From assembly GCA_013374855.1 (NCBI GenBank), contig CP055308.1, forward strand, positions 272,715 to 336,714: a stretch of DNA of 64,000 bases, in the 5' to 3' direction. Shown in pieces: positions 22,571 through 44,361 of this stretch. Made by a program: the position numbers and the translations under genes. The DNA is from Candidatus Woesebacteria bacterium (GTDB taxonomy: Bacteria; Patescibacteriota; Microgenomatia; UBA8517). Each line of letters opens with the position of its first letter. The first letter of the stretch is position 1. The notes below the pieces were generated by a model that was given only the letters and a program-made list of their open reading frames with translations, had not been told where the DNA came from and made no database searches.

Positions 22571-23401
22571 TTGAAAAAATTATTACCAGAAGAAAAAGCT
22601 TCGATTTTCTATCACAGTTTCTTTGATTATCCTCTAACGGAGGAAGATCTTTTAAAGTGGGCTGTTGGAAGAAAATTTTTATCGCTTTTTCCAAAAAAGA
22701 TAAATGTTATTCAGAAAGATGGTTTTTATTTTCTTCCAGAAGAAAAGTCCAGTATTTCTTGGCGGCAAAAAAGAGAAAAGTTTTCTGAAAGAAAGATCAA
22801 GATAGCAAAAAAGGCAGCTTCTTTGATTTCTCTTTTACCTACCGTCAAACTTGTTGCCATAACAGGATCGCTTGCGATGAGAAATGCAGATATTGATTCG
22901 GATATTGACTTGATGATTGTAACAAAGAGTGGTTTTCTTTGGACAACAAGGATATTTGTTTATCTTTTCCTTTTTGCCTTTGGTTTTCCTTTCAGAAGGT
23001 TTGGCAGTAGAGAAGTAAAAGATAAACTCTGTCTTAATATTTGGCTTGATGAGGGGAAACTTGTTTGGCATAAAAAAAATATTTTTACTGCGCATGAAGT
23101 TTTGCAAATCGTGCCGCTTTTAAACAGAAACTTTACCTACGAGCAGTTTTTGTCTGCTAATTTGTGGGCTTTTGATTATTGGCCAAATGCGGCAGACAAA
23201 AGAAAGTTGAAATGGACGGCTTTTTTAAAATTGAAAATTGACTTTTTTTCTTATATCTGGGCGCCGTTTGAGCTTTTGGCTTTTCTTTTGCAGAGACTTT
23301 ATATGCTGGGCAAGATTGGAAGAGAGACGGTTTCTTTGGATAGGGCAATATTTCACCCCATTGATCTTTCGGATAGAATTTTGCAAAAGCTACATACATA
23401 G
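22571..23401 (+). CDS. Minimal nucleotidyltransferase (Pol-beta superfamily) domain protein
   Basis: ITGSLAMRNADIDSDIDLMIV matches the GS-x9-13-DxD nucleotidyltransferase signature. Confidence 0.5.
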   Translation: MKKLLPEEKASIFYHSFFDYPLTEEDLLKWAVGRKFLSLFPKKINVIQKDGFYFLPEEKSSISWRQKREKFSERKIKIAKKAASLISLLPTVKLVAITGSLAMRNADIDSDIDLMIVTKSGFLWTTRIFVYLFLFAFGFPFRRFGSREVKDKLCLNIWLDEGKLVWHKKNIFTAHEVLQIVPLLNRNFTYEQFLSANLWAFDYWPNAADKRKLKWTAFLKLKIDFFSYIWAPFELLAFLLQRLYMLGKIGRETVSLDRAIFHPIDLSDRILQKLHT

Positions 23402-23412
23402 GAGCGGGAGAG

Positions 23413-23456
23413 TGGAAGAGTAGAAGTTGAAGATTTGATTTATGATTTATGAATTA
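23413..23456. repeat. Direct repeat copy A (about 44 bp), paired with 25118-25161. It contains internal tandem TGATTTATGA units.
   Basis: TGGAAGAGTAGAAGTTGAAGATTTGATTTATGATTTATGAATTA is identical at 23413-23456 and 25118-25161. A short GAGTGG is shared upstream of each copy. Confidence 0.7.
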
Positions 23457-23462
23457 TGATTC

Positions 23463-24158
23463 ATGATTTATGAACTTATAAGAATCAAGAACGAGCTGGG
23501 TATGAAAACCGATTCGTTAGAGTCTTATCCTGCCTGTTTTTTCGATACCCAAGAAACTAGAGATTTTACTGGTAGTCGAATGTGCAATGCAGGGAAGACG
23601 GCATGTACCATTGGATTTGATGGTAGTATAAGGCCTTGCTCTCATGCTATTCAGACCTATGGATCTATGTTAGATGCTGGCGGGCTATATGAAGCGTGGA
23701 TAAACATGCAGCCTTGGAGAACAGAGGAATATATTCCAGAAAGTTGTAATCAATGTCCTGAAAAAAACTTGTGTAGAGGAGGATGTAGAACAGAAGCTTT
23801 TGCTGTATATGGGAGTCTCAAAGCTCCAGACCCTTACTGTAATTTGTCAAACACCGTCATACCTAGATCCTCTACTAATAGAGAGAGGGTTGATTTTTCA
23901 GCAGAATATTACTTTCACCCAGCCACTAAATACAGAGAGGAAAATTTTGGTGGGATTCTTTTTGTGACTCCCGTAAGATGGGTTGGAGTAACACATCAGC
24001 TGTATAATTTTTTTACAGAAAACAAAGTGAACAGATTTAGACTTAGTGCTTTGGCAAAATCTCTAGGACTAGAGGATAATAATCAAATTGAGACAACAGC
24101 CGAAATGTTAATTCGAAAGACTATATTACAGAAAGGGGGTGATAAGAATGACAAGTGA
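23463..24158 (+). pseudogene. Orphan SPASM/twitch-domain fragment, the C-terminal part of a radical SAM peptide maturase with the radical SAM core missing
   Basis: CNAGKTACTIGFDGSIRPC matches the start of SPASM domains (C-x-AG ... DG-x-V-x-PC). Downstream CNQCPEKNLCRGGCR gives the auxiliary cluster cysteines. No CxxxCxxC is present. An in-frame TGA lies 6 nt upstream of the ATG inside the direct repeat. Confidence 0.55.
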
Positions 24159-24330
24159 AAGAGAAACTAATCCAACCCCTGGAATAGTTGAAATGGTAGT
24201 TGAGGAAAGTGACAAGATTGATGAAAATCAACAACAGAGCTGTTATGAGTCTTGTGATGCAAGTGGTTGTGATTGTTTTGACTCAGGTGATTGTTTTGAT
24301 TACTGTGACAGGGTGCCGGACCCAGATTAA
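24148..24330 (+). CDS. Acidic six-cysteine small peptide, 60 aa from the ATG at 24148 or 63 aa from a GTG at 24139. It looks like a RiPP precursor.
   Basis: The sequence is MTSERETNPTPGIVEMVVEESDKIDENQQQSCYESCDASGCDCFDSGDCFDYCDRVPDPD. It has an acidic leader-like N-terminus. The C-terminal core pattern is C-x3-C-x4-C-x-C-x5-C-x4-C. A GGGGG lies 8 nt upstream of the ATG. It overlaps the 3' end of the SPASM fragment. Confidence 0.45.
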   Translation: MTSERETNPTPGIVEMVVEESDKIDENQQQSCYESCDASGCDCFDSGDCFDYCDRVPDPD

Positions 24331-24378
24331 AAACTTAAACTTTTAAAATAGTGTTAAATAAAAGTAAAAGACAGATCT

Positions 24379-25041
24379 ATGAAAATAATAGTAGATTATT
24401 CTTTGGATCTTGATACTTGGAATTACCTACGTTCTGTTTATAGGTTTGTGTGGTATATTCATGGCAGAAGCAACCTTCAAAAAAAGCTTCTTTCGGCTCT
24501 TCCAGAAGATCTGGTTGCTGACCTAAAAAGTACAAAAGATGAGAAACAAGCAAGGAAGACTATTAAAAAATTTCTGCTTAAAAATATAGAAGTTAGGAAG
24601 AAAAAATACTTCCTTATTGCTCAAAATATAGAATCTGCATGGGAAAAAGAGAGTTTTGAAATAGAGACTAAGCTGGAAAAATTGTACGAAAACAAGATTC
24701 CATTTAGGTCAATAAAAATCTTTCTTTCTACTTTACCCATCTGTCCTTACAACTTTGAGAAAAAATGGATAATGGTATTTGGCGAGACCAATACCAAAAA
24801 ACAGCTTCAAATTATAACTCACGAACTTAACCATTTTATGTTCTACTACTATTTTGGAGAAATAAAGAATGAATTGGGGAAAGAAAAATTTGAATCATTA
24901 AAAGAAGCTCTAACAGTGTTTACCAACCCGGAAGAGAAGGGATATCCTAATCAAAAGAGAATAAGAGATTGGCTGTCAAAACAAAAGCGAAGGTCAATCC
25001 CAGAAATAATCAAAAGCGGTAGGTGGAAAGAATATCTTTAA
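24379..25041 (+). CDS. Hypothetical protein with an HExxH motif (putative zincin-like metallopeptidase)
   Basis: QIITHELNHFMFYYYFGEIKNE has HELNH plus a downstream Glu. There is no signal peptide. It is the last gene inside the repeat-bounded cassette. Confidence 0.4.
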   Translation: MKIIVDYSLDLDTWNYLRSVYRFVWYIHGRSNLQKKLLSALPEDLVADLKSTKDEKQARKTIKKFLLKNIEVRKKKYFLIAQNIESAWEKESFEIETKLEKLYENKIPFRSIKIFLSTLPICPYNFEKKWIMVFGETNTKKQLQIITHELNHFMFYYYFGEIKNELGKEKFESLKEALTVFTNPEEKGYPNQKRIRDWLSKQKRRSIPEIIKSGRWKEYL

Positions 25042-25117
25042 TTCCGACAACCAAAATATCAATTTTAAAGTCTAATGATCTATTAGCTTACGAAAATAAT
25101 AAATAAGAGTGGGGGAT

Positions 25118-25161
25118 TGGAAGAGTAGAAGTTGAAGATTTGATTTATGATTTATGAATTA
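25118..25161. repeat. Direct repeat copy B, paired with 23413-23456
   Basis: Identical 44-mer. It is followed by another GATTTATGAATTTATTC unit. Confidence 0.7.
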
Positions 25162-25276
25162 GGATTTATGAATTTATTCTAGAATCTTAATTCACTTTGT
25201 TCTTTGTTCTACTATTGTCAATGGTTAATGGTTAATGGTCAAATGTCATGCTGAATTCATTTTTCGCATCTCTTAC

Positions 25277-25390
25277 CTTAATTATAAACAAATTACAAAT
25301 TCCAAATCACAAGCTCCAAACAAATTCCAATTAACAAATTACAAACAATACACAAATTCCAAATTACAAAACATCCTCCTTCGCCAAGGC
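25277..25390. repeat. Degenerate tandem A/C-rich repeats with the unit ACAAATTCCAAAT(T/C)ACAA inside a 650-bp non-coding region
   Basis: ACAAATTCCAAAT-like units recur 3 or more times with CAAATTACAA variants. Flanking microsatellites are ATGGTTA x2.5 at about 25230, ATTCACT x3 at about 25518, CTTTGTT x3-4 at 25582-25610 and CAGTTGG/GTTGGATGTTGG repeats at 25630-25690. Confidence 0.5.
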
Positions 25391-25465
25391 TACGGAAGGG
25401 CAAGCAAAAATGGTAATTAACTTTTAACAAGGATAGGAGAAACAATATTAAACAAGTCTCCTAAT

Positions 25466-25497
25466 AAGGTCTGGCCTTTAAGTAAAGGCCAGACCTT
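25466..25497. repeat. 32-nt near-perfect palindrome (15-bp stem, 2-nt loop)
   Basis: AAGGTCTGGCCTTTA-AG-TAAAGGCCAGACCTT. There is no T-tract on either side, so it is not a classic intrinsic terminator. Confidence 0.6.
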
Positions 25498-25705
25498 TAT
25501 AAAATCAAATTCCAAATCACTATTCACTATTCACTGTTTACAAATTTGCTTTCTACCTGATGCTAGATGCTTGCTACCATTCTTTTCTTTGTTCTTTGTT
25601 CTTTGTTCTATCTTTGTTGTTGGTTGGATGTTGGAAGTTGTTTGTTCGCTTTAGCGTTGTTGTCAGTTGGCAGTTGGATGTTGGCAGTTCCGTAAGGAGT
25701 GCCTC

Positions 25706-25807
25706 TTGACAAGTTTTATTTGTTTTTTATAATAGCACTTGGGGTTTAGCAATGCTAAAAGCAAAGTGCTAAATGCCTCTTGACAAAACAAAATTCTTTT
25801 TTAAAAT
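25706..25807 (+). promoter_or_regulatory. Two sigma70-like promoters upstream of groES, each embedded in a repeated GCCTCTTGACAA sequence
   Basis: P1 is TTGACA 25706-25711, 16 nt, then TATAAT 25728-25733. P2 is TTGACA 25780-25785, 16 nt, then TAAAAT 25802-25807. Confidence 0.45.
25732..25772 (+). promoter_or_regulatory. CIRCE-like (HrcA operator) inverted repeats, two overlapping copies with 9-nt spacers
   Basis: TTAGCAATG-N9-AAGTGCTAA at 25746-25772 against consensus TTAGCACTC-N9-GAGTGCTAA. An overlapping ATAGCACTT-N9-CAATGCTAA lies at 25732-25758. Both sit between P1 and P2 of groES. Confidence 0.55.
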
Positions 25808-25819
25808 TTTTTCTAGTCT

Positions 25820-26122
25820 ATGGGAAGCAAAAAATTAAATTTAAAACCAACACCAGGCTATCTTTTAATAGAACCTGCTTTGGCTGAAAAAAAGACTGAG
25901 TCTGGTATTTACCTTCCTGATACTTCAGAGGAAAAACCCCAAAAAGGTAAAGTTTTAGCAGTAGGGGCAGATGAGGTTCTTGATTCTGGAAAGACGAGAA
26001 AATCTCCAGCTAAAGTTGGTGATGAAATAATTTACAAAAAATGGGGTGGTAATGAAGTTAAGATTGATGGCAAGGAATATATCTTTGTTAAGTTTGAGGA
26101 TGTTTTGGCAGTAATTGGCTAA
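25820..26122 (+). CDS. groES: Co-chaperonin GroES
   Basis: 100 aa with [13 protein letters not shown] ... KGKVLAVG ... [11 protein letters not shown], the canonical Hsp10. Confidence 0.95.
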
Positions 26123-44289: not shown

Positions 44290-44361
44290 AGGCACGAGAG
44301 GGAATCGAACCCTCGCATAGCTGTTTTGCAGACAGCCGTGTTTCCACTTCACCATCGTGCC
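44290..44361 (-). tRNA. tRNA-Cys (anticodon GCA), 72 nt, with CCA not encoded
   Basis: The minus-strand read gives acceptor GGCACGA/TCGTGCC, a 3-bp D stem (GTG/CAC), anticodon stem GCTGT/ACAGC with loop CTGCAAA (GCA), T arm GAGGG-TTCGATT-CCCTC, and discriminator U. Confidence 0.8.

Follow-up and report, generated by a model that had tools for sequence, protein, structure and literature searches.

A window of 64,000 nt from the Candidatus Woesebacteria contig CP055308.1 (positions 272,715 to 336,714; coordinates below count from the first nucleotide of this window) carries, upstream of groES, a 1661-nt cassette of three genes enclosed by direct repeats. We regard it as probable that this is a decayed copy of a cassette of the RiPP type (for peptides made on the ribosome and modified after translation), specific to the candidate phyla radiation (CPR), whose first gene was truncated at or near a heptamer array and whose flanking repeats are a duplicated junction. 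An earlier reading, made from the letters of the DNA alone (the sequence-only reading), had listed a SPASM-domain fragment without CxxxCxxC, an acidic 60-aa peptide with six Cys and an HExxH protein between identical 44-mers; the open reading frames (ORFs) are as it described them, and the 44-mers (TGGAAGAGTAGAAGTTGAAGATTTGATTTATGATTTATGAATTA, at 23413-23456 and 25118-25161) are exact matches with no further copy in the window at up to 3 mismatches, against an expectation of 0 copies in shuffled sequence. Its proposal that the genes are the remnant of a peptide-modification locus of the radical S-adenosylmethionine (SAM) type is borne out by intact cassettes of the same gene order in other Patescibacteria, which locate the truncation.

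The first ORF of the cassette scored 44.6 bits against the SPASM model TIGR04085 (cutoff 27, E=1.4e-11) and 16.8 bits against PF13186, under the cutoff of 21.5 for that model, with the SPASM domain (a C-terminal, Cys-rich module for auxiliary Fe-S clusters with the pattern Cx9-15Gx4C ... Cx2Cx5Cx3C ... C) occupying residues of about 41-126 (window 23583-23840). The CxxxCxxC motif, which in radical SAM enzymes binds the SAM-cleaving [4Fe-4S] cluster within a partial TIM-barrel core, is absent from its 231 residues and a PF04055 scan gave no match, which leaves the protein outside the radical SAM superfamily as a functional maturase. When aligned with four full-length or repaired homologs, it starts at column 253 of 487, and therefore about 235-250 N-terminal residues, amounting to the whole radical SAM core, are missing and the break is located at the boundary between that core and the SPASM domain. 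The truncated ORF keeps every conserved SPASM Cys, and in the alignment of 5 sequences eight Cys columns do not vary. The AF2 model (pLDDT 89) has four strands (residues 148-176) and three helices (178-218) after the SPASM domain; Foldseek matched the model's N-terminal portion to PqqE, CteB and anSME, and the C-terminal part to PqqD (5sxy), the PbtF RiPP recognition element (RRE; 8t19), MccB and lasso B1 (6jx3 and 5v1v), with probabilities of 0.8-1.0 and weak E-values (0.05-0.5). Because of this order of strands and helices and these structural matches, the protein is read as a SPASM domain followed by a predicted C-terminal RRE, a PqqD-like winged helix at residues of about 148-225 (window 23904-24137); the modelled region agrees with the leader-binding RRE fold, in which three helices come after a three-stranded sheet.

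The truncation point can be read codon by codon. The junction runs in frame as TGA TTT ATG ATT TAT GAA TTA followed by TGA TTC ATG ATT TAT GAA CTT ATA AGA ATC, which translates as a stop codon and FMIYEL, then a second stop codon and FMIYELIRI. The second of these units matches FMINELLRIR, LMISELNKIK and NMIQELIRVR at three homologous loci (L006, L043 and L002, respectively; L numbers denote loci in other genomes or contigs) codon for codon, and it is therefore genuine gene sequence, the true 5' end of the truncated gene, with codon-level homology beginning at (TTC) ATG ATT TAT GAA. The first unit nearly duplicates the second, makes up the final 21 nt of the exact 44-mer and is also present in the right repeat. 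The in-frame stop TGA at 23457-23459 lies directly 3' of the exact 44-mer and within the extended repeat described below, so that its earlier placement inside the left repeat is right for the longer repeat and wrong for the 44-mer. Tandem units do occur in the 44-mer, as had been claimed, with another periodicity than the 10-mer then proposed: TRF on 23436-23479 gave period 7 (TGATTTA) with 87% matches and period 21, a tandem duplication, with 91% matches.

The 60-aa peptide has the features of a precursor. Its leader contains TPGIV, its core (CYESCDASGCDCFDSGDCFDYCD) holds the six Cys, and its gene is preceded by a strong Shine-Dalgarno sequence (AAAGGGGGTGA) and overlaps the end of the SPASM ORF by 11 nt. 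A (P/L)GI(V/I) leader followed by a Cys/Asp-rich core is shared with the precursors of L001, L005, L006, L007, L014, L020, L024, L026 and L043, and the core of the window precursor is almost identical to that of L006, though the enzymes of the two loci are just 57% identical. The third protein belongs to a family with a gluzincin fold in which the H, E, H and E of the metal site are invariant, and thus fits the gluzincins (clan MA), which are defined by HExxH with a downstream Glu as third metal ligand in a thermolysin-like fold. A Pfam scan of 45 family members assigned no family. The nearest systems for this partner are the alpha-ketoglutarate-dependent hydroxylases of RiPP clusters, ChlH, BpmH and PflC (IPR026337 / TIGR04267), to which it does not belong by sequence. 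Radical SAM-adjacent HExxH enzymes carry out Asp and His hydroxylation and also backbone cleavage (PMC12636437), and by analogy with these activities the protein could be a putative leader peptidase or Asp hydroxylase. A profile of the family searched against PDB sequences returned only spurious calmodulin-like matches, which were discarded.

Querying 5.8 billion proteins with the SPASM ORF gave five matches. Locus L001 (JGI) has the same order as the window: its full-length enzyme of 398/434 aa contains CPNACLHC, its peptide of 54 aa ends in CQKCDQDCDCWDCVSCDEDLPSER and its HExxH protein of 220 aa carries HELNHFMFYYYY; in L005 and L006 the radical SAM motif is CNERCVHC. A scan of 185,579 species-representative genomes with a 10-sequence HExxH alignment found 30 loci, in Woesebacteria, Daviesbacteria, WWE3, Uhrbacteria, Nomurabacteria and similar lineages (the few labelled otherwise are third-party assemblies), and no HExxH relative was found on viral contigs. 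Judged from these 30 loci in named genomes, the cassette family appears restricted to Patescibacteria (CPR). An intact single-frame enzyme stands directly upstream of the HExxH gene at 8 loci, six of them with a Cys/Asp-rich precursor (filtered at no fewer than 4 Cys), and as read from these sequences the intact cassette consists, in order, of a radical SAM/SPASM/RRE enzyme (about 400-465 aa), a Cys/Asp-rich precursor and an HExxH protein. None of the window's three proteins reaches a curated NCBIfam cutoff, except that the SPASM domain model is passed; the precursors of the window and its homologs match no NCBIfam model, and the full-length enzymes fall under every equivalog cutoff, the best score being 112 bits against GeoRSP_rSAM (cutoff 400). 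The family is, going by these models, uncurated, and nothing specific on it, on CPR ranthipeptides or on CPR radical SAM RiPPs was found in the literature.

Many of the homologous cassettes are themselves broken. The enzyme gene has one frameshift common to two assemblies (L002/L003), a deletion of about 15 codons plus a frameshift (L005), a frameshift in a T-run (L006) or two or more frameshifts (L007, the same as L032); in L043 the RRE is out of frame, and in L035 an 81-aa SPASM remnant abuts the HExxH homolog. In WWE3 the enzyme is split into overlapping ORFs of 212 aa and 223 aa, seen both in an NCBI genome (L008:6001-7286) and in an independent Logan assembly (L009:228-1513), so that two of the enzyme breaks recur in independent assemblies. 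The closest HExxH relative (68% identity), in the complete Woesebacteria Ch104b genome CP055307 (L013:5867-6660), lies in a different neighbourhood, where its gene is preceded by no more of the cassette than the 3' half of the precursor gene. The HExxH gene appears from this last locus to outlive the rest of the cassette. The WWE3 enzyme may be truly encoded by a split gene, or it may be a pseudogene that has become fixed; its locus also holds two HExxH-type genes, a second radical SAM gene and a second Cys/Asp-rich peptide, this one on the minus strand (L008:9120-9281). At L006, on a metagenomic contig, an rve_3 integrase-domain (transposase) gene (L006:1721-2230) stands directly upstream of the frameshifted cassette.

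That the cassette was acquired, as the sequence-only reading supposed, follows from its surroundings. In relatives the order TsaD - Sua5/TsaE - VTT - VanW - SBP - nucleotidyltransferase-fold (NTase) gene - variable position - GroES - GroEL - M23 is conserved, and the part from SBP onwards is kept in L011, L012 and L044; homologs of the NTase are mostly from Woesebacteria. In L012 and L044 (NTases 57% and 63% identical to that of the window, respectively) the NTase gene is directly followed by groES with a gap of 143-146 nt, and therefore the cassette region is an insertion, while in L011 (61%) this spot is occupied by another insert, of two genes. The groES control region at 25700-25819, with two sigma-70-like promoters (12/12 and 11/12) around a CIRCE-like inverted repeat (TAGCACTTGGGGTTTAGCAATGCTAAAAGCAAAGTGCTAA), is intact, so the lineage-specific extra DNA is 23402-25699, about 2.3 kb, made up of the cassette between its two repeats and then a 525-nt patchwork of different heptamer arrays. 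The composition of the insert gives no signal of foreign origin. The impression that the SPASM fragment is less AT-rich than its surroundings dissolved on calculation, its GC of 0.388 not differing significantly from the gene mean of 0.350 (sd 0.026); its GC3 is 0.306 against 0.289 +/- 0.034, its codon usage is typical of the other genes, and the GC of the whole cassette is 0.353 against 0.343 for the window. A compositional island was rejected on the strength of these native-like values.

The repeats extend well beyond the 44-mer. Ungapped, they form a 76-nt direct repeat of 89% identity (23394-23469 against 25099-25174, spacing 1705); with gaps allowed they reach about 100 nt (about 23385-23486 against 25093-25186), the left copy having one additional 7-nt unit. 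The purine-rich part of the left copy (23394-23435) overlaps the NTase stop codon, and in the closest relative, L010, a 1056-nt contig whose NTase is 84% identical, this purine-rich part directly follows the NTase stop before the contig stops. Past its heptamers the right copy runs on into GATTTATGAATTTATTCTAGAATC, a stretch similar to the opening codons of the SPASM ORF, where it aligns with GATTTATGAACTTAT--AAGAATC; of 500 shuffles, 1 equalled the score of this downstream extension. No significant homology carried the right repeat farther left, into a relic of the NTase 3' end. The 44-nt core, identical between diverged edges, points to integration by a single crossover, to a tract of gene conversion or to a duplication in the recent past. 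Since both the heptamers and a copy of the opening codons of the truncated ORF are part of the repeat, it is either younger than the truncation junction or the source of the microhomology used there. Recombination at the repeats, which had been put forward as the means of acquisition or rearrangement, is a plausible inference. Of two possible readings of its origin, both drawn from the junction sequence, one would have the array grow out of the 5' end of the gene itself, with all of the left junction later copied rightward, and the other would have a TGATTTA array already in place provide microhomology for the cut in the gene; both make the repeats products of the junction, and they do not look like a conserved attachment site or a dispersed or miniature element.

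That the 44-mer is one case of a generic repeat dispersed between the genes of this genome, or of a miniature mobile element, with no part in the cassette's history, is the least credible alternative and in our judgement highly improbable. The 44-mer is partly low-complexity owing to its heptamers, period-7 arrays abound just downstream, and similar arrays exist in another CPR genome. Against this, its purine-rich half and its heptamer half, queried singly with 3 mismatches, each hit only the same two sites in the 64 kb; a 26-mer of the core has 0 matches in the species-representative genomes (GTDB collection, the source genome not being among them) and for a 22-mer the JGI metagenome contigs gave 0 matches. 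Nor is the purine-rich 22-mer repetitive, and the other heptamer arrays are built of different units. Against an IS/MITE, an integron cassette or an integrative island, the repeats are direct, not inverted, and have no terminal inverted repeats; no recombinase or transposase gene lies between them (window ORFs, Pfam), no tRNA or other Rfam family marks the repeat site, and the site does not resemble attC or a tRNA attachment site. The sole RNA gene found by Rfam at gathering scores in the whole window is one tRNA at 44290-44361.

An artefact of assembly or a population variant was also weighed. By this account the chromosome would read NTase-repeat-groES, and the cassette with one repeat would be a circle, a minor variant or a mis-joined loop. 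Logan's de Bruijn assembly of SRR6186653, made independently, gives the cassette as a contig by itself of 1721 nt, that is 1661 nt plus 30 nt of repeat per end, as a k=31 graph yields for a 44-nt repeat, and the graph therefore branches at the repeat; the contig confirms the internal sequence of the cassette and by itself cannot confirm the joins. Close relatives, moreover, have the empty arrangement. On the other side, a repeat of 44 nt is far below ordinary read lengths and should be spanned by reads; to the left and the right of the core alike, the copies differ as the linear order NTase-repeat-cassette-repeat-groES predicts; and the relatives' empty sites have neither the 525-nt patchwork nor the repeat, so that this region is not simply NTase-repeat-groES. 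The layout of repeat, cassette and repeat also occurs in other genomes, at L020 (exact repeats of 728 nt, L020:3337-4064 and L020:6671-7398, around an intact cassette on a 598-kb Patescibacteria contig), L024 (39 nt, 92%) and L001 (47 nt, 85%). We consider an artefact or variant of this kind very unlikely.

The flanking repeats at these three loci are unrelated in sequence (39-728 nt); that of L024 is a terminator hairpin, that of L020 contains no RNA family or tRNA even at E<=0.1, and the layout was not seen at seven other loci with sufficient flanks. A bolder possibility would make the family a new CPR-specific class of Cys/Asp cross-linked peptides that moves as repeat-cassette-repeat units without a dedicated recombinase, for instance by circularisation and single-crossover re-integration in naturally competent Patescibacteria, with the truncated copy still acting on the 60-aa peptide; jointly with this, the locus might be a downsized pathway without radical SAM chemistry, in which the SPASM-RRE and HExxH proteins work through binding, metal or Fe-S chemistry, hydroxylation or cleavage. 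We hold this combination to be unlikely.

Features of the cassette region and its flanks in the window
Feature	Position	Strand	Basis or remark
Nucleotidyltransferase-fold (NTase) gene, 276 aa, left flank	22571..23401	+	PF01909 NTP_transf_2, 21.7 bits
Left direct-repeat copy	23385..23486	+	exact core 23413-23456; purine-rich part, TGATTTA array, first 8 codons of the SPASM ORF
Heptamer array, TGATTTA x5.4, also 21-nt tandem duplication	23436..23479	+	TRF
5'-truncated maturase gene, 231 aa	23463..24158	+	SPASM domain and predicted C-terminal RRE / PqqD-like winged helix; no radical SAM core
Precursor peptide gene, 60 aa, six Cys, many Asp/Glu	24148..24330	+	homologous precursors at nine loci
HExxH protein, 220 aa, HELNH	24379..25041	+	uncurated family; gluzincin-type metal site H148, E149, H152, E176
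Right direct-repeat copy	25093..25186	+	exact core 25118-25161; one heptamer unit fewer, then GATTTATGAATTTATTCTAGAATC
Non-coding patchwork of unrelated period-7 arrays with a 15-bp hairpin	25141..25689	.	absent from empty sites L012, L044
Native groES control region and groES, right flank	25700..26122	+	promoter matches; same arrangement directly after the NTase gene in L012, L044

The favoured reading, a decayed cassette, may be put as a sequence of steps. In an intact pathway, by analogy with PapB/SCIFF-type systems and RRE-dependent maturases, the RRE would bind the PGIV leader, the radical SAM core would cross-link the Cys-rich core, most likely as thioethers, and the HExxH enzyme would then cleave off the leader or hydroxylate Asp. 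The cassette sits as an insertion in the lineage-variable spot between the NTase gene and the groES promoter, and the 5' portion of about 0.75 kb for the SAM-cleaving core has been lost, with the break at ...TTC ATG ATT TAT GAA..., where the gene is in register with the TGATTTA array. The direct repeats of about 100 nt would be the left junction in two copies, each running from the purine-rich flank through the heptamers into the opening codons of the truncated ORF, made or homogenised by recent recombination in the form of duplication, single-crossover integration or gene conversion. Since a SPASM-RRE protein without the CxxxCxxC cluster cannot start radical chemistry, the locus is most likely dead as a maturation system, though its three ORFs are open, and the repeats leave it prone to loss through recombination between them.

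Several observations weigh against this reading. All three ORFs are intact, every cluster-binding Cys has been kept over 231 codons, the precursor core is near-identical to that of L006, and the dN/dS of the HExxH gene is about 0.1 against L013, with dS saturated; for the SPASM ORF dN/dS is not usable because dS is saturated. Open ORFs, a conserved precursor and a low HExxH dN/dS together mean that the truncation is recent, or that the remnant is still under selection or partly functional. The fraction of broken copies is biased because loci were sampled through their SPASM and HExxH genes, and the gene-derived extension of the right repeat is a short AT-rich alignment. The order of insertion, truncation and repeat formation is likewise one that we infer, and a distant trans-acting partner may exist in the rest of the 802-kb genome, the profile search having covered the best 120 of 1636 matches.

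Such a partner is what a split maturase would call for, the SPASM-RRE ORF working in trans with a radical SAM core protein encoded elsewhere so that the peptide is still modified. The ORF is open with its SPASM Cys and predicted RRE fold intact, the precursor is served by a strong ribosome-binding site and its core is conserved, and the family's enzyme gene is often split between core and SPASM domain, as in the WWE3 pair shared by two independent assemblies and the frameshift shared by L002 and L003. An in-frame radical SAM domain elsewhere, which the sequence-only reading had named as counting against itself, was not found in what was covered: tblastn with four N-terminal halves gave only chance matches in the 64-kb window, and none of the best 120 of 1636 protein matches to a profile of that half (down to 93 bits) is on the 802,554-nt source contig, which argues, as far as sequence profiles go, against a close partner elsewhere in the genome. 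At the other split loci the halves remain adjacent, and no Shine-Dalgarno sequence precedes the ATG at 23463. Break positions vary by locus, with two frameshifts or more at some (L007), and decay therefore fits better than a selected split. A split maturase thus seems unlikely.

The relation of a decayed cassette of this kind to known systems is one of logic more than of sequence. Like ranthipeptide (PapB/freyrasin) and SCIFF (TIGR03973/TIGR03974) systems, the intact homologs combine a CxxxCxxC core, a SPASM domain, an RRE and a Cys/Asp-rich precursor, and by analogy leader recognition followed by radical cross-linking would be common to all of them. PapB joins Cys to Asp beta-carbons, and the CD-rich core of the precursor fits Cys-to-Asp/Glu thioether links at non-alpha carbons as far as its composition goes. 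The SCIFF/ranthipeptide-like logic noted earlier does not carry over to sequence: against the PapB model (NF047865, cutoff 340) the window ORF scored 20 bits and the full-length L020 homolog 77 bits, against the SCIFF maturase model 15.3 bits (cutoff 425), and the precursor did not match the SCIFF precursor model. The RRE of this family is C-terminal to the SPASM domain, unlike in CteB and SuiB, where it is N-terminal, and unlike the ranthipeptide and SCIFF systems the family has its own HExxH partner and a CPR restriction, the window copy also being without the catalytic core.

The best profiles for the SPASM region were PqqE (E=2e-10) and the mycofactocin protein MftC (E=1.5e-9), and in the structural comparison PqqE (6c8v) was the best match of the modelled ORF, with PqqD (5sxy) matching its predicted C-terminal domain, a likeness to the PqqE/PqqD and MftC/MftB pairs. 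Unlike PqqE and MftC, the ORF is far under the equivalog cutoffs, its PqqD-like domain is fused C-terminally and its precursor is unrelated to PqqA or MftA. The stand-alone SPASM proteins of GeoRSP (TIGR04304) and the pseudo-SAM/SPASM proteins (TIGR04347) are precedents for a SPASM domain without a canonical radical SAM cluster; the window ORF scored weakly against both (28.5 bits, cutoff 300, and 26.5 bits, cutoff 525, respectively) and, unlike them, is a 5'-truncated member of a family of full-length genes.

To our knowledge, the natural-product chemistry of CPR bacteria is almost unknown. Radical SAM/SPASM RiPP clusters are already known as a type, and what appears new here, from sequence comparison, is the C-terminal RRE, the HExxH partner, the CD-rich PGIV precursors and the CPR restriction; in this family a radical SAM/SPASM enzyme with a C-terminal RRE occurs together with HExxH proteins of a new family and with a Cys/Asp-rich precursor whose leader carries a conserved PGIV motif. 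The copy in the window is itself an ordinary decaying remnant, and its value lies in its intact relatives (e.g. L014, L020, L021, L024 and L026), which are ready targets for heterologous expression, and in the decay series. The window and its relatives supply a small natural series, from the empty site and the intact cassette through a frameshifted and a 5'-truncated enzyme to the HExxH gene left alone, and it exemplifies how very small genomes gain accessory gene cassettes and let them erode.

The spot between the NTase gene and groES appears to be a hot spot for accessory genes, the insert in L011 (L011:9134-11876) encoding a 589-aa protein without Pfam domain and an M20 peptidase. The patchwork to the right of the cassette is composed of the units TGATTTA, AATGGTT, ACAAATT x12, CACTATT, TTCTTTG and GTTGGCA/GTTGGAT, and TRF found no other period-7 array in the 64 kb. 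Cyanobacterial STRR are intergenic tandem heptamer arrays with several unit sequences, which the patchwork resembles, with phylum and unit sequences differing, so that the likeness is one of resemblance only. Heptamer-based intergenic repeats of a similar kind occur in L020. Positions 25466-25497 within the patchwork form an inverted repeat whose arms of 15 bp (AAGGTCTGGCCTTTA / TAAAGGCCAGACCTT) pair perfectly around a loop of 2 nt; it has no T-run and no Rfam match.

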